UHGV virus genome: UHGV-0327176
Strand: one strand, 5' to 3'
Origin: a virus
DNA length: 27,026 nt
This document shows, in pieces, positions 2,380-13,271 of the stretch (position 1 is its first letter; the number at the start of each line of letters is the position of its first letter). The position numbers were made by a program, and so were the translations under genes. The notes beneath the pieces are model-generated. The model was not told the origin of the DNA. It did not search any database and saw nothing but the letters and a program-made list of their open reading frames with translations.

Positions 2380-2408
2380 TTGACTTTTTGAATAAAGTTG
2401 GGTAAATT
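2380..2408 (+). promoter_or_regulatory. Late promoter pR' (-35 TTGACT, 17-bp spacer, -10 TAAATT) with adjacent qut region
   Basis: TTGACT at 2380-2385 and TAAATT at 2403-2408, immediately downstream of Q. The flanking sequence agrees with my memory of lambda pR'. Confidence 0.6.
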
Positions 2409-2889: not shown

Positions 2890-3009
2890 GCCCGTGCATA
2901 TCGGTCACGAACAAATCTGATTGCTAAACACAGTAGCCTGGATTTGTTCTATCAGTAATCGACCTTATTCCTAATTAAATAGAGCAAATCCCCTTATTGG
3001 GGCTAAGAC

Positions 3010-3333
3010 ATGAAGATGCCAGAAAAACATGACCTGTTAGCCGCCATTCTCGCGGCAAAGGAACAAGGCATCGGGGCAATCCTTGCGTTTGCAATGGCGT
3101 ACCTTCGCGGCAGATATAATGGCGGTGCGTTTACAAAAACAGTAATCGACGCAACGATGTGCGCCATTATCGCCTGGTTCATTCGTGACCTTCTCGACTT
3201 CGCCGGACTAAGTAGCAATCTCGCTTATATAACGAGCGTGTTCATCGGCTACATCGGTACTGACTCGATTGGTTCGCTTATCAAACGCTTCGCTGCTAAA
3301 AAAGCCGGAGTAGAAGATGGTGGAAATCAATAA
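3010..3333 (+). CDS. S: Holin S (class I, dual-start S107/S105)
   Basis: 107 aa ORF beginning MKMPEKHD (Met1-Lys2-Met3 dual start), with three hydrophobic segments. Recalled as near-identical to lambda S. The upstream sequence ...caaatccccttattgggg... also matches lambda. Confidence 0.95.
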
Positions 3334-3793
3334 TCAACGTAAGGCGTTCCTCGATATGCTGGCGTGGTCAGAGGGAACTGATAACGGACGTCAGAAAACC
3401 AGAAATCATGGTTATGACGTCATTGTAGGAGGAGAGCTATTCACTGATTACTCCGATCACCCTCGCAAACTTGTCGCGCTAAACCCCAAACTCAAATCAA
3501 CAGCCGCCGGACGTTACCAGCTTCTTTCACGTTGGTGGGATGCCTACCGTAAGCAGCTTGGCCTGAAAGACTTCTCCCCCAAAAGCCAGGACGCTGTGGC
3601 ACTGCAACAGATTAAAGAGCGTGGCGCTTTACCAATGATTGATCGCGGTGATATTCGTCAGGCAATTGACCGTTGCAGCAATATCTGGGCTTCACTTCCG
3701 GGCGCTGGTTATGGTCAGTTCGAGCATAAGGCTGACAGCCTGATTGCAAAATTCAAAGAGGCTGGCGGAACGGTCAGAGAGATTGAGGTATGA
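3317..3793 (+). CDS. R: Endolysin R (lytic transglycosylase)
   Basis: 158 aa [42 protein letters not shown]..., recalled as lambda R. It overlaps the end of S as in lambda. Confidence 0.95.
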
Positions 3794-4227
3794 GCAGAGT
3801 AACCGCGATTATCTCCGCTCTGGTTATTTGCATCATCGTCTGCCTGTCATGGGCTGTTAATCATTACCGTGATAACGCCATCGCCTATAAAGAACAGCGC
3901 GATAAAGCCACGTCCATCATCGCTGACATGCAGAAGCGTCAACATGATGTAGCAGAACTCGACGCCAGATACACAAAGGAGCTTGCTGATGCTAACGCGA
4001 CTATCGAAAGTCTTCGTGCTGATGTTTCTGCTGGTCGTAAGCGCCTGCAAGTCGCCGCCACCTGTGCAAAGTCAACGACCGGAGCCAGCAGCATGGGCGA
4101 TGGAGAAAGCCCAGGACTTACAGCAGATGCTGAACTCAATTATTACCGTCTCCGAAGTGGAATCGACAGGATAACCGCGCAGGTTAACTACCTGCAGGAG
4201 TACATCAGGACTCAGTGCCTGAAATAA
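3790..4227 (+). CDS. Rz: Spanin inner-membrane subunit Rz (i-spanin)
   Basis: 145 aa ORF with an N-terminal transmembrane segment ([17 protein letters not shown]) and a coiled-coil periplasmic region. Lambda-Rz-like N-terminus, directly downstream of R. Confidence 0.85.
3983..4174 (+). CDS. Rz1: Spanin outer-membrane lipoprotein Rz1 (o-spanin), embedded in Rz in the +1 frame
   Basis: 63 aa ORF wholly inside Rz in another frame, with a signal peptide and lipobox-like LVVSAC followed by a proline-rich segment ([12 protein letters not shown]). This is the classic embedded Rz/Rz1 arrangement. Confidence 0.7.
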
Positions 4228-4259
4228 TTTTTTTGCAAATCACAAAGTCCATTTAATGA

Positions 4260-4284
4260 GCCTCGCGAAAAGCGGGGCTTTTTT
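4260..4284 (+). terminator. Intrinsic terminator after the lysis cassette
   Basis: Stem gcctcgc / gcggggc (7 bp including one G-U pair), loop gaaaa, then TTTTTT at 4279-4284. Confidence 0.55.
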
Positions 4285-4435
4285 ATGTCCTCAGTAAACC
4301 GCGCATTCTCGTGCGCATATCAACCAAGAGCTTTTCGGGATATGAGACAGAGACAGGACGGTGGCTTACATCGTGCCGCTCTTGGGCTGTCCATGTCTGC
4401 GAGAACTGGCTCATATCACCAAAAAGGTAAATACG

Positions 4436-5164
4436 ATGTCCAATATCATCCCGATTGATTTCGAAGGCCATCCCATGCGTTTTTCTGACGATGGCTGGTT
4501 TGACGCGACTGCGGCAGCTGACAAGTTCAACAAGGAGCCGGCTCAGTGGCTTAGGCTTCCTGAGACTGTCCGTTACATCGAGGCGTTAAAGAGTAGATAT
4601 GGGAATATCACATATGTAAAAACCAGCCGCGCTCGCAAAGACCGTGGCGGCGGAACATGGCTTCACCCAAAACTGGCGGTCAGATTTGCTCGATGGCTTT
4701 CTGTAGATTTTGAGATCTGGTGTGATGAGCAAATTGACGCAATCATTCAGGGTTCCGTTCATCATATCGACGATGAAAGAATAAAGGCTATTTTCCTTCT
4801 GGATAAATCTCAGCCATGGGAAAAGAGGTTTAGCGATCCGTTTTATTCTGCGATGTTCAAAATGTCAGGGCTGCCCCGTCATCGACCAGGTCGTCGCCCC
4901 GCACTATTTGGGATGATCAGTGCCAAGTGGGTATATGGCCAGGTATTACCACCAGAAGTATATGCAGAGGTTAAAAGACGGCTGGCTGCGGGAGACAAAA
5001 TCCATCAGCACCTTAAACCTGACGCGCTGACATTGGTTGAGCGACAGATCATTGCCGTTACCAGCATTGCCAATGGGTGCTCTGATTATCGTGATTTCGA
5101 AGCGCGTTGCATGTCGGCATTCCCGGTGAAAGGGCAGATGAAATTGCTCTATGCGGCGGCCTGA
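4436..5164 (+). CDS. KilA-N domain protein with a C-terminal domain I recall as P63C-like (accessory gene)
   Basis: The N-terminal region MSNIIPIDFEGHPMRFSDDGWFDATAAADKFNKEPAQWLRLPE...HPKLAVRFARWLSVDFEIWCDEQIDAI resembles KilA-N (APSES-type DNA-binding) domains. Start chosen at the ATG at 4436 with AAAGG 8 nt upstream; the ORF track extends to a GTG at 4361. Confidence 0.65.
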   Translation: MSNIIPIDFEGHPMRFSDDGWFDATAAADKFNKEPAQWLRLPETVRYIEALKSRYGNITYVKTSRARKDRGGGTWLHPKLAVRFARWLSVDFEIWCDEQIDAIIQGSVHHIDDERIKAIFLLDKSQPWEKRFSDPFYSAMFKMSGLPRHRPGRRPALFGMISAKWVYGQVLPPEVYAEVKRRLAAGDKIHQHLKPDALTLVERQIIAVTSIANGCSDYRDFEARCMSAFPVKGQMKLLYAAA

Positions 5165-5166
5165 TC

Positions 5167-5424
5167 ATGAGCACCCGAATAATAGAATGCGCCTCCAGAG
5201 CGGGGCGCGACTTCTCAGAGTTCATGAAAGGCGAGAAGGGCATGATGGAAGCATTGGCCTCGGTGGATGAGTTTGGCGAGCAGCTGCGCCTCAACGGCTG
5301 TGTCAATCATCACTTTGTTAGCTACATGATGCGGAACTCGATCATGCAGGCATTCATGGACATGGCAAAAGCCGAGAGGAAAGAAGAGCGCCGGCGTAAG
5401 CGAGCGGAAGCAAAAGCGAAGTAG
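5167..5424 (+). CDS. Hypothetical small protein with a basic C-terminal tail, coupled to the KilA-N gene
   Basis: ATG at 5167 lies 2 nt after the KilA-N stop (TGATCATG). 85 aa ending in the lysine/arginine-rich KAERKEERRRKRAEAKAK. No homolog recalled. Confidence 0.45.
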   Translation: MSTRIIECASRAGRDFSEFMKGEKGMMEALASVDEFGEQLRLNGCVNHHFVSYMMRNSIMQAFMDMAKAERKEERRRKRAEAKAK

Positions 5425-5778
5425 CCATTACAAAGCCCATCTACTGGTGGGCTTGATAATGAAACCGTGATTTACATCCCTCACAATCCAGGTATGTAAA
5501 AGCTGGATCATGCGAGAACGGATTTAACTAAATCTGTGCGCCACCAGTTAACGGCAGTACCACGAAACAACCCAAGCCAGTAAGTGGGGAAATAACACTG
5601 GCAGCCACTGAAAGATGAACCTCCAGCCTTATGGCAAAAAAGATTCTTTGTGGTGGCGGACTGATGGAAAGACATCGGTTATTGCAGAGGCCATTCAATG
5701 AGTGGTCTCGACAATGGCTTATACCCTACACGGGATAACTTAACTGATATCCCTTTTAACGGATAAACGGAGCCAACA

Positions 5779-6276
5779 ATGGCAAAGCTCGCAGACAAAC
5801 AAGAGCTGTTTGCCCATCCGGATGATGTGTATGTCGGAGAGTGTGTGATTTATACCGGCTACATAAATAAGCGAGGGTATGGGCAGAAGCACATTTCACG
5901 AAAGCCGCACTACGCACATCGAATCGCATACTGCGAAGCTAACGGAATTTCGCTAGATAGCATCAAGGACCTGGTTGTTAGGCATAAATGCGATAATCCA
6001 TCATGCGTGAATCCTGACCATCTGATTATAGGTACTGTCGCTGACAATAATCGGGACAGGTCAAGGCGAGGCAGAAACTCATACCCTGACCGTTCAGGTG
6101 AAAAGAACGGAATGGCGAAATTAAAAGAGTGCGATGTCATCTGCATTCGCCGCGAGTATGTGCGCGGGAGTGTAGGTAATGGGCTTAGGTCTTTAGCAAA
6201 GAGATATGGCGTATCCACTACCATGATTGCTGACATCGTTAATCATAGAAATTGGAGCAATGTTTCGGAGGTGTGA
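5779..6276 (+). CDS. HNH endonuclease (terminase-associated)
   Basis: 165 aa ORF with the HNH-type motif HKCDNPSCVNPDHLIIGTVADN and a C-terminal helix-turn-helix-like segment (LAKRYGVSTTMIADIVNHRNW). GGAG ribosome-binding site upstream. Lies immediately before the small terminase. Confidence 0.8.
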   Translation: MAKLADKQELFAHPDDVYVGECVIYTGYINKRGYGQKHISRKPHYAHRIAYCEANGISLDSIKDLVVRHKCDNPSCVNPDHLIIGTVADNNRDRSRRGRNSYPDRSGEKNGMAKLKECDVICIRREYVRGSVGNGLRSLAKRYGVSTTMIADIVNHRNWSNVSEV

Positions 6277-6277
6277 T

Positions 6278-6847
6278 TTGAAACAGCTCACACCTAAGCA
6301 GGAACTGTTCTGCAGGGAATATTTAAAAGATTTAAACGCCACACAGGCAGCTATCAGGGCGGGTTACAGCGAGAAGACTGCCAATGAACAAGCATCACGC
6401 CTGTTAGCAAATGTTAATGTCCAAAACTTTGTCGCCGAACTTAAGGCAGCCCGCATTGAGCAGACTGGTATCGATGCCGCCTATGTTCTGCGACGCTTGG
6501 TTGAGATAGACCAAATGGACGTGCTCGACATCATGACTGATGACATGAGTCTGAAGCCTGTCTCTGAGTGGCCTGCATCATGGCGGCGCTACCTCAGTGG
6601 ATTTGATCTTGCGGAAATGTTCGAAGGACGCGGCGATGACCGAGAGATGGTTGGCATCCTGAAGAAGATTAAATGGCCTGATAAGGTTAAAAACCTTGAG
6701 TTGCTTGGGCGCCATGTTTCTGTTCAGGCGTTTAAAGACAACGTCAAAAATGAAGTGACTGGTGCTGACGGAGGACCAGTCAGAACAGAAATTACCAACT
6801 TAACGCCGGAGCAGGCTGCAGAAGCGTATAAAAAAATGATGGGCTAA
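6278..6847 (+). CDS. Terminase small subunit (P27-family type)
   Basis: The N-terminal motif [34 protein letters not shown] is typical of this small-terminase family as I recall it. I propose the TTG at 6278 (GGAGG 6 nt upstream, 1 nt after the HNH stop); alternative in-frame starts are the ATG at 6260 or 6227. Confidence 0.75.
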
Positions 6848-6849
6848 GT

Positions 6850-8472
6850 ATGCCGTTACCATTTCCCTTCGATTTTAAACATCCTGATTACCAGATGGTT
6901 TTTGAATGGCGGATGGAACGCTTACAGCGCATTCGCCAGAACCCCGAAATGCTGCCAGCGCTTAAGCAGTTTTACCGAACCAATCCGGCTCAGTTCATCA
7001 TCGACTGGGGCATGACAACGGACCCACGTAACATCGATTATGGCCTGCCGGTGACCATTCCGTTTTTACTCTTCCCTAAGCAGGAGGAGTGGATCCACTG
7101 GATTATGGAACGCTGGGGTAATCGGGAGAATGGTATTACCGAAAAATCCCGTGAAATGGGGCTCAGTTGGACCGCGATCGGACTGGCCTGCTCGCTTTGT
7201 CTCTTCAACAAAGAAATGGTTATCGGTTTCGGCTCCCGTAAAGAGGAATACGTCGACAGCACTGGTGACCCGAAAGCATTGTTCTGGAAGGCGCGCAAGT
7301 TCGTGGAAACACTACCTGTAGAGTTTCGCGGTTCGTGGAGCGAGAAGAAGCACGCGCCATATATGCGTGTTGAGTTTCCTGAAACTGGTGCCGTTATCAA
7401 AGGCGAGGCTGGCGATAATATTGGTCGTGGTGACCGTACCACGCTTTATCTGGTTGATGAGGCTGCATTCCTTCAGCGTCCTCTGCTGATTGATGCGGCG
7501 TTGTCACAAACCACCCGCTGCCGTATCGACCTGAGTTCGGTTAACGGCATGGCGAACCCGTTCGCGCAGAAGCGTCACGGCGGGAAGATACCGGTATTCA
7601 CATTCCACTGGCGAAATGACCCGCGCAAGGATGAAGAGTGGTATCGCAGGGAATGCGAGAAAATCGATAATCCGGTGGTGGTGGCACAGGAACTTGATCT
7701 GAACTACAGCGCATCAGCGGAAGGCGTCCTGATTCCATCCGAATGGGTACAGGCTGCCGTTGATGCGCATATCAAACTGGGGATCCAGCCAACAGGCAAA
7801 CGACTTGGCGCGATGGATGTCGCCGACGAAGGCAGGGACAAAAATTCCTTTTCCACTCGTCATGGCTTCCTCCTGGAGAATGTGCGGGAATGGTCCGGTG
7901 TGGGCAGCGACATTTATCAGTCCGTCGAGAAGGTCTTCGGCTTTTGCGAACAGGACGATCTTGAAGAGTTTCGCTTTGACGAGGACGGGCTGGGCGCTGG
8001 CGTTCGCGGCGATGCACGCGCTATCAACGAACTGCGTAACGCTGCGCGCCGACAGTCAATACTCGCCACACCGTTTCGTGGTAGCGGCGCGGTATTTGAT
8101 CCGGACGATGAAGCGGTGCGCGGGGACAACGGACAGGCCGCACGCCTGAACAAGGACTTCTTCGCCAACGCCAAGGCCCAAAGCTGGTGGTGGCTACGCA
8201 ACCTTTTCCAGAACACCTATCGCGCCGTGGTTGAGGGCATGGCCTACAACCCGGACGAAATCATCTCAATCAGCAGTAGCATGGCGCTCAAAGATAAACT
8301 CATCATCGAGCTTTCGCAGCCGACCTATTCCATTAATGGTGTGGGAAAAATCGTTATTGATAAACAGCCTGATGGAACCCGGTCGCCAAACCTTGCCGAC
8401 TCGGTGATGATCAGCTACGCGCCAATGAATTCAGCCCTGAACATCTGGGAGCTGCTAGGGAGACAGGCCTGA
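6850..8472 (+). CDS. Terminase large subunit
   Basis: 540 aa ORF directly after the small subunit and before the portal. Has an N-terminal ATPase-like region and an acidic DEAAF segment consistent with a terminase nuclease/ATPase. Assignment rests on size, order and general resemblance. Confidence 0.8.
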
Positions 8473-9938
8473 TGGCACGAAACAAACAAGCCACGCGGCG
8501 AACGGCACAGGCCACCGCTGATGGATATGAGAACTTTGTCGCCCGCGTGGGGATGCAGACGCCTAACCAGCACTCAGCATCGACCTACCGGGCTAACTTC
8601 ACCAGCCGCAACCGCATGCTGGTGGAATGGTCCTATCGTTCGTCCTGGATCATCGGCGAAGCGGTCGACGCTATCCCGGATGATATGACCCGCAAAGGCA
8701 TTCGCATCACTTCGGAAATTGATGCAAAAGATCGCGGCATTCTCGAATCACAACTTGATGAGTTGCAGATCTGGGATGCGCTGAACGACGTGCTGAAATG
8801 GTCTCGCCTCTACGGCGGCGCGGTCGGCTTCATCATGATCGAGGGGCAGGCACCAATGACCCCGCTGCGGCTCGAAACCATTGGAGAAGGCAAGTTTAAG
8901 GGTATTCTCCCGCTCGACCGCTGGATGATTAACCCGGTGCTGACCCGCCGCATTAAAGAGATGGGGCCGGACCTGGGTAAACCTGAGTTTTACGACGTGG
9001 TGACCACTGCAACGGGCATCCCGGCCTGGCGAATCCATCACAGCCGCCTGATTCGCTTCGATGGCGTCACGCTGCCATTCCAGCAGAAGATGACCGAGAA
9101 CGAATGGGGAATGTCGGTTGTAGAGCGAATCTGGGATCGGCTTACTGCGTTCGACAGCGCCACTGTCGGCGCGGCTCAGCTGGTCTACAAAGCGCATCTG
9201 CGCACCTACAGCGTGGAGAAGCTGCGAGAGCTTATCGCACTTGGTGGCCCCGCGTTCGAGGCGTTGCTGAAGAACATCGACCTGATCCGCCAGTTCCAGA
9301 GCAATGAAGGCATGACGCTCATGGACTCGCGGGATAAGTTCGAAACCCACCAGTACAGCTTTAGTGGTCTGGATGACATTCTTTCGCAGTTTGCTGAGCA
9401 GATCAGCGGTGCCGTTGGTATCCCGCTGGTACGCCTGTTCGGTCAATCCCCGAAAGGCTTCTCTACTGGTGATGCAGACCTCGCCAACTATTACGACCGG
9501 GTGAGCTCATTGCAGGAACGCCGCTTACGGATGCCGATGCGTCGGATACTGGACATCATGCATCGTTCGGAGCTTGGCAAGCCGCTGCCGGACGATTTCA
9601 CGTTTGAGTTTAACCCGCTATGGCAAATGTCTGACGTTGACCGCTCAACGGTGGCCGTAAACACTACCAACGCAATCAGTACGGCGCTGGGTGATGGTCT
9701 GATGACACTGAAAGCCGCTATGACTGATTTGCGCGAAAATTCTGACGTAACCGGCATCGGGGCGTCCATTACCGACGAGGACATAGAGAATGCCGAAGAC
9801 GAAGCGCCGCCAGGCATCGGCGAACTTGGCGACAAACCGCCAGAGTCGCCAGGCGGAGATCCGATATCGAACGAGCCTACGGCAGATAGCGCGGGCGGTC
9901 GGGGATATCGTAAATGGTCGCTACGATGGTTCAAATGA
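8472..9938 (+). CDS. Portal protein
   Basis: 488 aa ORF following the large terminase (ATGA overlap), with an acidic low-complexity C-terminal tail. Called by position and size. Confidence 0.75.
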   Translation: MARNKQATRRTAQATADGYENFVARVGMQTPNQHSASTYRANFTSRNRMLVEWSYRSSWIIGEAVDAIPDDMTRKGIRITSEIDAKDRGILESQLDELQIWDALNDVLKWSRLYGGAVGFIMIEGQAPMTPLRLETIGEGKFKGILPLDRWMINPVLTRRIKEMGPDLGKPEFYDVVTTATGIPAWRIHHSRLIRFDGVTLPFQQKMTENEWGMSVVERIWDRLTAFDSATVGAAQLVYKAHLRTYSVEKLRELIALGGPAFEALLKNIDLIRQFQSNEGMTLMDSRDKFETHQYSFSGLDDILSQFAEQISGAVGIPLVRLFGQSPKGFSTGDADLANYYDRVSSLQERRLRMPMRRILDIMHRSELGKPLPDDFTFEFNPLWQMSDVDRSTVAVNTTNAISTALGDGLMTLKAAMTDLRENSDVTGIGASITDEDIENAEDEAPPGIGELGDKPPESPGGDPISNEPTADSAGGRGYRKWSLRWFK

Positions 9939-10563
9939 CAGTGTCACCGAAATAATGGATGCGCTGGAGCGCTACAGCGAAATCATCACCCCCTGGGCGA
10001 CTAAGGTTGCTGAGAGCTTCACCGCCGACATTGCGCGCCAGAATGAAAAGCAGTGGCGTCAGCACAGTCGGAACATCAGCGCAGAACTACGCAACATGGT
10101 CGACCGCGCCCCGGTAGGCCAGGTGATGAAATCCATCGTCGCCGAGCAAATTAAGTACATCAAATCTCTGCCTCTTGAGGCCGCCGATCGGGTGTATGAC
10201 ATTCAGAACAAGGCCATCGAGGCTGTAGTAACTGGTGGCCGCGCTGAGCCATTCGCGAAAGAGATAGCTGCTTCCGGTGACGTGTCACGCTCACGAGCGA
10301 ACCTTATCGCCCGGACTGAGCTTGGGCGCGCAACCGGTGCACTGGATCAGGCGCGTGCGCTGTCAATCGGCTCGAATGGTTATATCTGGCGTACAGCCGA
10401 AGATGGCGACGTCCGGCATTCTCATCGAGAGATGGAAGGGAAGTTTGTCGAATGGGGCCGACCTCCAACGCTTGACGGCATGACCGGTCACGCTGGCGAG
10501 CTCCCGAACTGCCGCTGTTACAAAGAAATCGTCTTCCCCAACCCTCATTCTTATCTCGCCTGA
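9790..10563 (+). CDS. Head morphogenesis protein (Mu F-like minor head protein)
   Basis: The C-terminal region NGYIWRTAEDGDVRHSHREMEGKFVEWGRPPTLDGMTGHAGELPNCRCY matches the Mu F-type motif as I recall it. The ORF overlaps the portal 3' end by 149 nt in another frame; an alternative start is the ATG at 9955. Confidence 0.7.
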   Translation: MPKTKRRQASANLATNRQSRQAEIRYRTSLRQIARAVGDIVNGRYDGSNDSVTEIMDALERYSEIITPWATKVAESFTADIARQNEKQWRQHSRNISAELRNMVDRAPVGQVMKSIVAEQIKYIKSLPLEAADRVYDIQNKAIEAVVTGGRAEPFAKEIAASGDVSRSRANLIARTELGRATGALDQARALSIGSNGYIWRTAEDGDVRHSHREMEGKFVEWGRPPTLDGMTGHAGELPNCRCYKEIVFPNPHSYLA

Positions 10564-10577
10564 ATCGCAGGTAAACC

Positions 10578-11810
10578 ATGAAATATTTTTTCAATACCCG
10601 GCTGGGGGAAACCCGTTATCAGCTGGCTGACGGCTCGCTACTGTGCAAAGACGTGCCGATAGGTCGAACGGGTAAGCAGCTTTACGGCGCTGCCGATCTG
10701 CCAAACCTCAAACCCGACAAGCTCGGCGAGATAGTCGTAACGCGCTCTCCTGATCAGGTGTTCCATCCGGCCACGCTCGCCTCATTCGAAGGGATGAGCA
10801 TCACGATCCTGCATCCTGAAGATGAAAACGGGAATGTGCGGCTGGTCAACCCCGAGAACTGGAAAGAGCTTGCGGTCGGGCATCTTCAGAACGTTCGGCG
10901 CGGGACTGGTGATCAGTCTGATTTGATGCTGGCTGACCTTATCGTCAAAGACGAAAGCGCCATTCAGCTGATCGAAGATGGTCTGCGCGAAGTGTCGTGC
11001 GGCTATGACGCTGAGTACGAGCAGACCGAACCCGGAAAAGCCGAGCAGGTCGATATTACCGGAAACCATGTGGCTCTTGTCCCTAAAGGCAGAGCCGGAA
11101 ATCGTTGTGCAATTGGAGACAGAGACACAATGGCAAATCAAAAGAAAAGCTGGTGGACCCGCATGCGCACGGCCATCAAAACGGGTGATGCTGACACCAT
11201 GAACGAACTGCTGGACTCTGCGCCAGCGGCGGTAACGGGCGATGAAGGGGATCTGCCGAGCGGCGTTAACCTCAACATTAATCTTTCACCGCAACAACCA
11301 TTGCCGGACAAAAAGCCGGAAATGGGCGGAGAGCCAACCGGCGACGGCGAGGACGATATCAAAACCTTGCTCAAAGCCCTGCTGGCTAAGCTGGAAGGTA
11401 CTGCAACGGGCGATAACGACGATAAGCCTGACGGCAAAGATAACAAAGACCCTACCGGCGACGGTGAGGACGACGAAGAGGAAACCACGATTACCGGTGA
11501 CGCTGCTTATCGTGCCGAAGTTATCGTTCCGGGTATCGATCTGAGCCGTAAGGTGAAACCGACCGCGTTCAAACGTGATGTGCTGTCCGCCGCTGACAAA
11601 ACACTGGTTCGCCAGGTTGTCGGTGATGCAGATATCCGCAAATTGCCCAAGCAATCGGTCGATATGGCGTTTAACGCCGTGTCTGAGATTGCCAAAGGGC
11701 GAAACACCCGCAGCACCACGGGCGATGCACAACGTCCAAATATGGGCATGACCAGCATCGCTTCCCTGAACAAACAAAACGCCGACTTCTGGTCTAACCG
11801 CAAAGGATAA
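10578..11810 (+). CDS. Putative prohead protease/scaffolding protein with an acidic low-complexity core
   Basis: 410 aa ORF between the head morphogenesis and capsid genes. The central region is rich in D/E/G/T with a repeated PTGDGEDD unit. I recall similar proteins as DUF2213-type; not verified. Confidence 0.55.
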   Translation: MKYFFNTRLGETRYQLADGSLLCKDVPIGRTGKQLYGAADLPNLKPDKLGEIVVTRSPDQVFHPATLASFEGMSITILHPEDENGNVRLVNPENWKELAVGHLQNVRRGTGDQSDLMLADLIVKDESAIQLIEDGLREVSCGYDAEYEQTEPGKAEQVDITGNHVALVPKGRAGNRCAIGDRDTMANQKKSWWTRMRTAIKTGDADTMNELLDSAPAAVTGDEGDLPSGVNLNINLSPQQPLPDKKPEMGGEPTGDGEDDIKTLLKALLAKLEGTATGDNDDKPDGKDNKDPTGDGEDDEEETTITGDAAYRAEVIVPGIDLSRKVKPTAFKRDVLSAADKTLVRQVVGDADIRKLPKQSVDMAFNAVSEIAKGRNTRSTTGDAQRPNMGMTSIASLNKQNADFWSNRKG

Positions 11811-11814
11811 TCCA

Positions 11815-12318
11815 ATGACTGCATATTTGTACCGGATGCCTGTTGGCATTGCCGGGGCTATCTCTCGCCCGCAGGACTTAACCGTCGAACCGGTGATCCT
11901 TAAATCCGCTAACGCCTTCGCTGCCTATGGTCTGGCTGGCAAATATGACGCTGACGGCTTTTTCGTGCCGCTGGCGGACGGTGACACCGCCGACAAGGTG
12001 AAGGGGATCTACGTTCGTCCGTATCCGACCACATCGCAGCCAGACATGGTTCGCCAGGTGGGGACGGATAAGAACTTCCCGGGTGACGCCATGAAGCGTG
12101 GCTACATGACCGTTAACCTCGGATCTGGCTTCGATGCCAGCACCATCAAAAAAGGCGATCCTGTCTACGTGGTCGTTTCGCTCGATTCAACCATTGACGT
12201 GCCGCTGGGCGGCTTCATGTCCACGTCCGTCAGTGGCAAAAACGTGGCGCTGACCAACGCCGAATTCACAGGGGCCGGTGACGCTAACGGCAATGCAGAA
12301 ATCTCCTGGAAGATTTAA
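11815..12318 (+). CDS. Hypothetical head protein (possible decoration or scaffold-associated)
   Basis: 167 aa ORF immediately upstream of the putative major capsid gene. Called by position only. Confidence 0.45.
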   Translation: MTAYLYRMPVGIAGAISRPQDLTVEPVILKSANAFAAYGLAGKYDADGFFVPLADGDTADKVKGIYVRPYPTTSQPDMVRQVGTDKNFPGDAMKRGYMTVNLGSGFDASTIKKGDPVYVVVSLDSTIDVPLGGFMSTSVSGKNVALTNAEFTGAGDANGNAEISWKI

Positions 12319-12329
12319 GGAACAGACGA

Positions 12330-13271
12330 ATGATTACTTTTGATCAGGCAACCGTTGATAGCTCTGGTGCCTTTCTCATCGGGGAGCTGGAGCGACTCGA
12401 CCAGACGCTGAACCTGCCGCTGGTGGGTTACACCTGGACCCGCGATATTCAGCTGCGTGAAGACGTTTCTATCGCAGATGACATTTCCAGCTGGACTAAC
12501 ACCAGTTTTGGCGCTGCGGGTACTGGCGCAAATCCGAACGGTAAAAACTGGGTAGGCAAAGACTCCACTGCTATTGCTGGCGTGAGTGTTGATATCGGCA
12601 AAGACGGCAATCCGCTGAACCTCTGGGGCATGGAGCTGGGCTGGACCGTTGTGGAGCTGGCAGCAGCTCAGCAGGTAGGTCGCCCGATTGATACCCAGAA
12701 GTACGACGGGATGCAGCTCAAATGGCAGATGGACAACGACGAGCAGGTTTACATTGGCGATGATGCGCTCGGCCTGAAAGGGCTGGCAAACCTTGTCGGT
12801 GTGACGCTGAACAATGCGCCGAAGACCTGGGCGAACTCCACCAACGACGAGATCCTCGATAGCGTGAACAGCATTCTGTCGAATGCCTGGGCAGCATCCG
12901 GTTATTCCGTCGTGCCTTCTGATCTGCGCATTCCGCCAGAGCAGTATTCACTGCTGGCGAGCCGTAAGGTTTCCGAAGCGGGTAACCAGTCACTGCTGAC
13001 CTATCTGGCCGTGAACACTATCGCTTTCCACCAGAACGGCGTTCCGCTGGAAATCAAAGCGGTTAAATGGCTGAAAGGGCGCGGGGTTGGCGGTAAAGAC
13101 CGTATGGTCGCCTACACCAACGACAAGAAATATGTGCGCTATCCGCTGGTGCCGTTGCAGAGCGTTCCTATCCAGTATCGCGGTCTGTACCAGATTGCGA
13201 CCTACTACGGCAAGCTCGGTGCGGTTGAGCCAGTGTACAAAGAAACCCTGTCCTACGTGGACGGTATCTGA
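12330..13271 (+). CDS. Major capsid protein (putative)
   Basis: 313 aa ORF at the expected position and size, followed by a GC-rich stem-loop, consistent with a highly expressed capsid gene. Family not confirmed. Confidence 0.65.
   Translation: MITFDQATVDSSGAFLIGELERLDQTLNLPLVGYTWTRDIQLREDVSIADDISSWTNTSFGAAGTGANPNGKNWVGKDSTAIAGVSVDIGKDGNPLNLWGMELGWTVVELAAAQQVGRPIDTQKYDGMQLKWQMDNDEQVYIGDDALGLKGLANLVGVTLNNAPKTWANSTNDEILDSVNSILSNAWAASGYSVVPSDLRIPPEQYSLLASRKVSEAGNQSLLTYLAVNTIAFHQNGVPLEIKAVKWLKGRGVGGKDRMVAYTNDKKYVRYPLVPLQSVPIQYRGLYQIATYYGKLGAVEPVYKETLSYVDGI

Follow-up and report, generated by a model that had tools for sequence, protein, structure and literature searches.

This analysis concerns a two-gene cassette at positions 4285-5424 of the virus genome UHGV-0327176, whose whole analysed stretch of 27,026 nucleotides (nt) is referred to as the window. 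The cassette codes for a KilA-N domain protein and a small basic protein, and it follows the lysis gene Rz. The 150 nt in front of the KilA-N gene are a conserved sense-strand RNA structure with four covarying helices. Judged by sequence comparison with related phages, the cassette is one allele of a polymorphic 'rha slot' between the lysis and packaging genes of lambda-like phages. The reading we prefer, with a probability of roughly 0.45, is that this allele is transcribed late and gated at translation, and that the KilA-N protein would bind DNA and, with its coupled partner, interfere with another genome during lytic growth. The control element would matter more than the two genes, which are themselves ordinary members of the KilA-N/Bro/Rha network.

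The spacer between the terminator behind Rz and the KilA-N start codon measures exactly 150 nt (4286-4435). When the spacers of phages with differing cassettes were compared, the same order of sequence blocks was found before different genes. Folding of 11 versions with RNAalifold gave a 5' hairpin followed by a nested three-helix domain, and compensatory changes were present in 12 of the 24 pairs. A covariance model, R1, was built from the leaders, and 33 distinct copies were aligned to it. In this model-fitted alignment, 93% of the cells were paired, compared with 36-54% when the partners were slid, and 14 pairs had changed on both sides. The covariation score was 0.456, against at most 0.126 in the controls, and none of 500 shuffles scored as high. 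The leader contains frequent G-U pairs, which would be C-A mismatches on the opposite strand; because of them, the structure is specific to the + strand.

The Shine-Dalgarno region lies in a helix, H2, that is kept by compensatory changes, as is expected of a leader that sequesters its ribosome-binding site (RBS). The versions of H2 are CUUUC:GAAAG, CUUUU:AAAAG, CUUUA:UAAAG, CUUUG:CAAAG, CUUAG:CUAAG and CCUACAG:CUGUAGG. A further helix, A:A', of 6-8 base pairs (bp), is found in every leader type and in at least 11 sequence versions. Its strand A consists of the 7 nt directly 5' of the anti-Shine-Dalgarno segment, and A' is the 3' side of the apical loop. Since A:A' crosses helices H2-H4, it has to be a pseudoknot or an alternative state. 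No linker separates strand A from the H2 strand, and the two helices would therefore not be expected to coexist in a rigid rod. A search of Rfam 15 gave no match to the leader at the gathering threshold, and only noise (E 1.3-2.9) when E values up to 5 were allowed. The RNA appears to be undescribed; a conserved upstream element may already be described by Henthorn & Friedman 1995.

The leader always ends at a Shine-Dalgarno sequence and an ATG; on its 5' side there is almost invariably a hairpin, in most cases followed by a T-run. At least eight unrelated gene types stand behind it: KilA-N-P63C, KilA-N-ORF11CD3, Rha-ORF11CD3, T5orf172/MUG113, HNH_3-AP2, P22_AR_N-ORF11CD3, a 155-amino-acid (aa) unknown protein and a 242-aa open reading frame (ORF) of phi80. 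The leader type of HK106 is 100% identical before phi80 rha and occurs also in HK620, epsilon34, CUS-3 and many Stx phages, with 187 phage records in all. The P22 leader was matched by the covariance model with an E value of 9e-19. Before KilA-N-P63C genes, the leader was detected in Yersinia (E 3e-15), Xenorhabdus (3e-12), Morganella (7e-11) and Gilliamella (2e-8), where the helices are kept through further compensatory changes. As unrelated genes share one leader type, the leader does not serve as an operator for the product of its own gene. Gene-specific autoregulation through the leader was rejected for this reason, an identical leader type being found before T5orf172, Rha and KilA-N-ORF11CD3 genes.

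Positions 4228-5474 share 99.0% identity with the HK97 region 37463-38710, where gp73 and the small ORF HK97p61 are encoded; they are 98-99% identical to mEp234, mEp506, mEpX1, mEpX2, mEp235 and HK446, and 96% identical to HK022. In a set of 5426 complete E. coli genomes, 18 contain 80% or more of the stretch and 1074 a part of it. The gene pair, as a sequence, is already known from GenBank and is ordinary for the slot. No function is recorded for any copy of the HK97 gp73/small-ORF pair, and no literature on the function of HK97 gp73 or of KilA-N+P63C proteins was found.

In other phages the slot is filled differently. Of the sister phages with near-identical lysis genes and right flank, Sf101 carries Rha-ORF11CD3 in it, HK106 a T5orf172/MUG113 (GIY-YIG-type) protein, and HK544 a 173-aa KilA-N protein of KilA-N-ORF11CD3-like type, while phi80 rha and P22 rha (orf201) occupy the equivalent place. 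Pairwise alignment with HK106, HK544, Sf101 and the locus L024 placed the left mosaic joint at 4283-4336, either just past the terminator or 50 nt further on, and the right joint at 5422-5426, directly after the stop codon of the small gene. These joints and the exchange of genes between sister phages bear out the proposal of an accessory cargo site between Rz and the packaging genes, made in a first-pass annotation from the sequence alone. A role of the cassette in packaging was rejected, as it precedes differing packaging modules and is missing from sister phages. The coordinates of the cassette, its leader and the late promoter are collected in Table 1.

Table 1. Positions of the cassette, its leader RNA and the associated control elements in the window.
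Feature	Position	Strand	Remarks
Late promoter, pR'-like	2380-2408	+	TTGACT-17-TAAATT, 43 nt 3' of the Q gene; promoter scan
Rz gene	stop at 4227		
Intrinsic terminator, 3' of Rz	4258-4285	+	GAGCCTCGC-GAAAA-GCGGGGCTT plus T6
Structured mRNA leader, ~150 nt	4285-4438	+	ends at the KilA-N ATG
Leader 5' hairpin	4301-4305/4312-4316	+	
Leader helix A with A'	4324-4330 with 4379-4385	+	pseudoknot or alternative
Leader helix H2 with the Shine-Dalgarno region	4331-4335 with 4422-4426	+	
Leader helix H3	4344-4350 with 4406-4412	+	GAGCCUG:CAGGCUC
Leader helix H4	4356-4361 with 4387-4392	+	inner hairpin
KilA-N + P63C gene	4436-5164	+	ATG 4436, 242 aa, HK97 gp73 homologue
Small ORF	5167-5424	+	ATG 5167, 85 aa, 2 nt 3' of the KilA-N stop

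The general layout described in the first-pass annotation, an intrinsic terminator and about 150 bp of noncoding DNA followed by a KilA-N-type gene and, 2 nt later, an 85-aa ORF, was found again at the positions given in Table 1. In the terminator scan, the stem-loop (4258-4280) has 9 pairs, 6 of them G-C, and the T-run ends at 4285; this position is the terminator boundary, and no gene begins there. The terminator is part of the conserved left flank that is common to phages with other cassettes, and a rho-independent terminator is annotated at the equivalent place in the records of HK106, HK544 and phi80. A leader peptide was also considered. The 57-codon ORF at 4285-4458 was rejected, its frame being stopped after 17 codons in the HK106 leader and after 11 in that of L032.

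The first-pass annotation had suggested that the 150 nt could hold a promoter of the cassette's own, and had compared the site with that of bor, a moron expressed by the lysogen. A consensus promoter scan found no sigma-70-like site on the + strand between 3000 and 6900, and a relaxed scan of nine leader versions found none in the window leader and no conserved site across the versions, which speaks against an own promoter. No promoter-like sites above chance were found in 3000-6900 or 5400-12400. A sigma-54-like GG-N10-GC motif, seen by eye, was rejected, since it is present in the window's copy of the leader only. The Q gene lies at 1714-2337 (Pfam Antiterm, E 1e-57), and the hexamers of the promoter behind it are those of lambda pR'. 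In the records of HK106 and HK544, the corresponding site bears the note 'similar to lambda PR''. All genes from 3010 to 27026 are on the + strand, and the comparison with bor is unlikely to hold for a cassette inside a single co-oriented late operon with such a promoter. In lambdoid phages, one Q-antiterminated transcript serves all late genes. The structural genes of the window can be reached only through the cassette, which argues that the cassette is transcribed late. The conserved RNA structure begins about 15 nt after the T-run of the terminator, so the start of the transcript must be upstream. The rha gene of P22 belongs to the late operon, is under IHF regulation and harms lytic growth when IHF is missing (PMC4936722), and the phi80 record carries for rha the note 'DNA synthesis inhibition in IHF- hosts'. 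Genes for tRNA-Asn(GTT) and tRNA-Thr(TGT) are located at 2612-2767, between the late promoter and the holin gene.

The KilA-N protein has two domains. Pfam KilA-N (PF04383) was assigned to residues 8-105 with 80.2 bits (cut-off 23.8), and P63C (PF10546), which the first-pass annotation did not mention, to residues 117-192 with 43.9 bits (cut-off 26.1). Residues 1-108 correspond to an APSES-type DNA-binding domain with the APSES-like alpha/beta fold, and residues 113-228 to an all-helical P63C domain. The identity to the eukaryotic APSES transcription factors Mbp1 and Bqt4 is only 14-16%; the similarity supports predicted DNA binding of the KilA-N protein and nothing beyond it. In Pfam searches, no nuclease, ANT/KilA-C (PF03374) or P22_AR_N/C domain was found in either protein of the cassette, and Phage_pRha (PF09669) gave no match at E values up to 0.1. 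PADLOC gave no match to a named defence family, BstA included, its sole match being a weak one to the candidate PDC-S22 (E 9e-5) over 30 residues of the KilA-N motif. Sequence searches of the PDB returned no relative of solved structure for either protein.

The full-length KilA-N-P63C family comprises 1133 clusters, and the architecture is conserved in the 120 best of the 1133. In prophages of Yersinia, Gilliamella and Morganella, the homologue has the lysis genes on one side and the terminase on the other. The Xenorhabdus gene stands directly 5' of the terminase, on a contig whose end cuts off the would-be lysis-gene region, and in Alcaligenes, Acinetobacter and Delftia the homologues are at other places. 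That KilA-N-P63C keeps its slot across Enterobacterales and Orbales suggests a retained function, and purifying selection acts on both cassette genes.

For the 85-aa ORF, the first-pass annotation had recognised no homologue and had named lack of conservation in related prophages as one finding that would count against its proposal. The ORF is conserved: it has 137 homologous clusters, all in Enterobacteriaceae, at identities down to 56%, and its ratio of nonsynonymous to synonymous substitution rates (dN/dS) is 0.04-0.24 against copies that are 56-98% identical. It matches PHROG 875 end to end (E 1e-53), a family of unknown function, so the earlier statement is incorrect to the extent that a family exists; none of its members has been characterised. 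A profile search of 1.84 billion representative proteins returned only 21 matches to the small protein, which makes the family a narrow one. No Pfam domain and no NCBIfam family was assigned to it. The description of a small, conserved, tightly coupled protein with a strongly basic C-terminus agrees with these values, with the 2-nt gap and with the finding of K or R at 10 of the 19 final residues. The AlphaFold2 (AF2) model, with a predicted local distance difference test (pLDDT) score of 88, has helices at residues 3-20, 26-42 and 48-84, and the long third helix bears the basic tail. Fold searches of the PDB and BFVD with the small protein returned generic helical bundles only. Residues C8, C45 and H49 are invariant, and H48 is mostly kept, being replaced by Q or Y in 3 of the 21 sequences; these residues may form a metal site.

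The small ORF starts 2 nt past the stop codon of the KilA-N gene and has no good Shine-Dalgarno sequence of its own, for which reasons it is likely to be translationally coupled to that gene. In the 80 viral loci and the genome loci analyzed, the gene 5' of it is always a KilA-N gene. Two types of partner were seen: KilA-N-P63C proteins of 242-251 aa with the 2-nt gap, and a 165-aa KilA-N-ORF11CD3 protein with an ATGA overlap. The recombination joint that separates these two types of cassette is found 15 nt into the small gene.

The most distant relatives of the small protein are 164-179 aa long and have an N-terminal helical domain, here named X, fused to T5orf172/MUG113. X corresponds to residues 4-59 of the small protein (hhalign against P0133, probability 96.7%, E 5e-10), and a match to PHROG 4284 was also obtained (E 3e-6). 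Only this N-terminal helical domain is matched, and the T5orf172/MUG113 catalytic domain is absent from the small protein. The homology of X to the N-terminal domain of T5orf172 proteins rests on P0133, P0134 and PHROG 4284. The HK106 gp64 protein reached only E 0.005 and a probability of 7.5% against the small-ORF profile and was not used for this conclusion. P0134, of the X-T5orf172 type, alone fills the lysis-terminase slot, and P0133 is encoded directly 5' of a KilA-N-P63C gene whose product is 43% identical to that of the window. The latter arrangement is in locus L108 (3001-4488), where the X-T5orf172/MUG113 and KilA-N-P63C genes lie among tail genes, near Arc-like and Bro-N genes, without the leader; it is an independent case in which the two protein types are associated. 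Because X adjoins KilA-N genes in two gene orders, we propose from these sequence contexts that the small protein is a physical partner of the KilA-N protein. A small protein that is a free-standing X domain recurrently associated with KilA-N appears not to have been described previously.

These results can be combined into the following mechanism. RNA polymerase would start at the pR'-like promoter, be modified by Q and pass the Rz terminator to transcribe the cassette and, after it, the structural genes, while the terminator would keep unmodified transcription out of the cassette. In the transcript, the leader fold would pair the Shine-Dalgarno region of the KilA-N gene with the upstream CUUUC-type segment, and the 7 nt beside this segment would pair instead, or additionally, with the apical loop. 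The resulting pseudoknot or two-state switch would gate translation of the KilA-N gene. The KilA-N/APSES-type domain would bind DNA, and the small protein, made by coupled translation, would partner the KilA-N protein through its helical X domain. Its basic tail may add non-specific nucleic-acid binding; in other phages, the X domain bears a GIY-YIG-type (T5orf172) nuclease domain in place of the tail. The pair would act in lytic growth on the replication or expression of a competing phage, a satellite or the host genome. By analogy with Rha, which inhibits DNA synthesis once it is deregulated, and with BstA, which blocks the replication of phage DNA, interference with another genome would be its most likely function, and a role as a lysogenic-conversion factor is unlikely.

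Several points weigh against this reading. What Rha and BstA have in common with the KilA-N protein is no more than a broad domain network, so the transfer of function from them is weak. KilA-N-P63C genes are common without the small ORF, and the partnership is thus not obligatory. Late-only transcription is deduced from the architecture, no expression data having been found. Part of the covariation statistics derives from an alignment that was fitted to the model and consists of related sequences, and the score of A:A' is that of a custom script, not of an established test. In leaders of the L024/P22 type, the segment paired in H2 is not the likely Shine-Dalgarno sequence itself but lies just 5' of it, and the minimum-free-energy fold of the window leader alone departs in detail from the consensus. 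There is no IHF consensus site in any leader, so the model does not account for the effect of IHF on rha.

The cassette could instead be a moron or defence gene expressed from the prophage. Its promoter, overlooked by the scans, would lie within the 150 nt or directly before them, and the KilA-N protein would abort or exclude superinfecting phages in the manner of BstA. The place is a classical site for cargo, the terminator 5' of the cassette would shield it from transcription that is not antiterminated, and the KilA-N motif has its weak PDC-S22 match. BstA itself is a prophage-encoded KilA-N protein (PMC8585504). This explanation is nevertheless unlikely: even relaxed criteria revealed no sigma-70-like site, the RNA hairpin so soon after the T-run places the transcript start upstream, and the same leader stands before the late-operon rha genes of P22 and phi80. 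A paired Shine-Dalgarno region is ill-suited to constitutive expression, and the PADLOC search matched no named defence family such as BstA. It is equally improbable that the KilA-N protein, with or without the small protein, is an anti-repressor that inactivates the repressor of its own or a co-resident prophage or satellite, so that other elements are induced when one grows lytically. KilA-N, Rha, P22_AR_N and ORF11CD3 do belong to a domain-swapping 'Bro network' with known anti-repressors (bioRxiv 2022.07.18.500453), P22 rha is annotated 'anti-repressor', and a P22_AR_N-ORF11CD3 gene lies behind the same leader type. However, the rha annotation is by name only, no ANT/KilA-C, P22_AR or Rha domain occurs in either protein of the cassette, and the product of a late operon comes after the lysis decision and could act only on other elements.

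Spread of the leader and its gene or genes as a selfish cassette, by recombination or homing at conserved flanks, would bring the phage little or no benefit, and tight repression would limit its cost. The sharp joints, at the terminator or the 5' part of the leader and right after the stop codon, are consistent with such movement, as is the presence of the terminator and leader before endonuclease-type genes (HNH_3-AP2 and T5orf172) and of an endonuclease-like gene that is inserted in L009 in front of the KilA-N gene and behind the leader, whose 3' part is duplicated there. Homing endonuclease genes of T-even phages likewise stand under RBS-sequestering RNA structures within a multi-layered control (PMC2988022). 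Against this, no nuclease domain can be recognised in either protein, purifying selection acts on both genes, and a two-domain protein that keeps the same slot across Enterobacterales and Orbales suggests a retained function, so we give this explanation a low probability. The remaining alternative concerns the leader only. In this case the conserved 150 nt would act at the DNA level, either as a linker for recombination or as a site bound by a protein, for example IHF or at an operator, and the RNA helices would be by-products. The 5' 50 nt are common to different cassettes and coincide with the left mosaic joint, and IHF regulation of rha has been reported (PMC4936722). However, the four helices stay paired through changes on both sides, A:A' occurs in its many versions, the frequent G-U pairs would be mismatched on the other strand, and the structure always ends at the Shine-Dalgarno sequence and ATG. 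An IHF site in the leader was rejected, as none lies within one mismatch of WATCAANNNNTTR across 16 leader types. We regard a purely DNA-level role as very unlikely.

Compared with known systems, the closest counterpart by sequence is the HK97 gp73 pair (HK97p60/HK97p61), which has the same place after Rz and the terminator and the same leader; the packaging module 3' of the cassette differs. Rha of phi80 and P22 (orf201) shares with the cassette its late-operon slot after the lysis genes and terminator, the leader family and the Bro/KilA-N/Rha domain network. It differs in its DNA-binding domain, which is Phage_pRha and not KilA-N, in its C-terminal domain, which is ORF11CD3 where the window has P63C (as judged from the Rha-family protein of Sf101), and in having no coupled small ORF. 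BstA is reportedly expressed from the prophage, beside the repressor locus, and is said to have a different C-terminal part and an internal anti-BstA DNA element. This abortive-infection protein of prophages has an N-terminal KilA-N domain and, like the pair proposed here, would be a phage-encoded KilA-N protein directed at another genome; BstA acts on phage DNA replication (PMC8585504).

At the RNA level, the nearest likeness is found in T-even phages, where RBS-sequestering structures restrain dispensable homing-endonuclease genes on long transcripts as one layer of several (PMC2988022). The hairpins of I-TevI, I-TevII, I-TevIII, segB and mobE occlude the RBS of a dispensable, often nuclease-type gene, as the leader would. 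They are simple, local and relieved by a late promoter inside the hairpin, whereas the conserved domain of the leader spans 110 nt, comprises several helices, one of them a pseudoknot or alternative, lacks an internal promoter and stands before many gene families. The antisense or leader RNAs C4, CI and IsrK of P1, P7, P4 and Gifsy-1 control genes of the Bro network or anti-repressor genes of temperate phages and satellites at the RNA level (bioRxiv 2022.07.18.500453). The leader differs from these in its architecture; Rfam gave no match to C4 or isrK even when E values up to 5 were allowed, and nothing points to a separate antisense RNA.

One RNA fold that is missing from Rfam thus precedes at least eight accessory gene types in P22, phi80, HK97, HK022, HK620 and Stx phages. 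If the preferred reading is true, the most variable cargo of lambdoid late operons would be under a shared control. The leader offers a test of how rha-type genes stay harmless and why IHF matters, and the link between X and KilA-N suggests modular two-protein DNA-targeting systems, which are relevant to phage-phage and phage-satellite conflicts. A bolder joint reading can be put forward only tentatively, and we consider it rather doubtful. According to it, the leader would represent a class of pseudoknotted riboregulator not yet described, switched by a ligand, a protein or transcription kinetics, and would serve as a shared 'safety catch' for exchangeable, potentially toxic accessory genes of the KilA-N, Rha, P22_AR_N, T5orf172 and HNH-AP2 types in temperate phages of Enterobacterales and Orbales. 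It might also be the cis element behind the 40-year-old Rha/IHF phenotype of phi80 and P22, and KilA-N plus X might form a two-part DNA-targeting system with a swappable effector, a basic tail in the window and a GIY-YIG-type nuclease in other phages.

Some further observations were made on the leader. Second copies are present in phi80 (L100, 4095-4223), L014 (5893-6021), L062 (1606-1733) and L050 (1531-1672), and they precede the 242-aa ORF (x171.28, similar to N15 gp59), the 155-aa unknown protein, HNH_3-AP2 and P22_AR_N-ORF11CD3. As these copies are in the same phages as the first ones, several leader-gated accessory genes per genome are possible. In P22 (L107), the leader is at 1993-2147 and the annotated rha start at 2076 lies inside it, 69 nt 5' of the in-frame ATG that ends the leader; in phi80 (L100), the leader is at 2501-2646 and the annotated start at 2608 is 36 nt 5' of such an ATG. 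In both phages the leader-ending ATG bears the conserved Shine-Dalgarno sequence. The annotated N-termini of these Rha proteins are probably too long, and knowledge of the leader could improve start-codon calls such as those of rha. In L009 (Scandinavium hiltneri, 3535-4255), the endonuclease-like gene begins at the leader ATG, and the last ~35 nt of the leader, with the 3' strand of H3 and the Shine-Dalgarno sequence, are duplicated before the KilA-N-P63C gene. This arrangement suggests that the endonuclease gene was inserted into the leader. The likeness of its sequence to the 170-aa HNH_3-AP2 protein of L062 was judged by eye.

In the HK97 reference (L001, 3941-4174), the small ORF is annotated with 77 aa and is frameshifted after codon 54 relative to the 85-aa consensus. 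This consensus is found in all other phages, and the frameshift is either a sequencing error or a real mutation. On the left side of the cassette, the 30 nt between the Rz stop codon and the terminator (4228-4257, TTTGCAAATCACAAAGTCCATTTAATG) are near-invariant in the equivalents of L011, L032 and HK106, even where the Rz genes share only ~54% identity. A weak -10-like TTTAAT was seen by eye 1 nt 5' of the terminator stem. On the right side, a hairpin at 5436-5457 (AAGCCCA...TGGGCTT) has no T-run and was not called by the terminator scan. It lies in a region of ~350 nt without a long ORF (5426-5778) that is 97-98% conserved among HK97-like phages, whichever cassette is present; a short ORF at 5633 in this region is annotated as 'Orf80' in mEp234. 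The HK97-like similarity spans the nin/Q region and ends at ~5787. Further 3' come an HNH_3 gene, the Terminase_2 small subunit, the large terminase, the portal and a myovirus-type tail module. The start of the HNH_3/His-Me endonuclease gene (5779-6276) coincides with the end of the HK97-like similarity, and this gene overlaps the start of the Terminase_2 small-subunit gene (6227-6847). A myovirus-like packaging and tail module, with a DUF3383 sheath-like protein and Baseplate_J, is in this way joined to a lambdoid late-control region.

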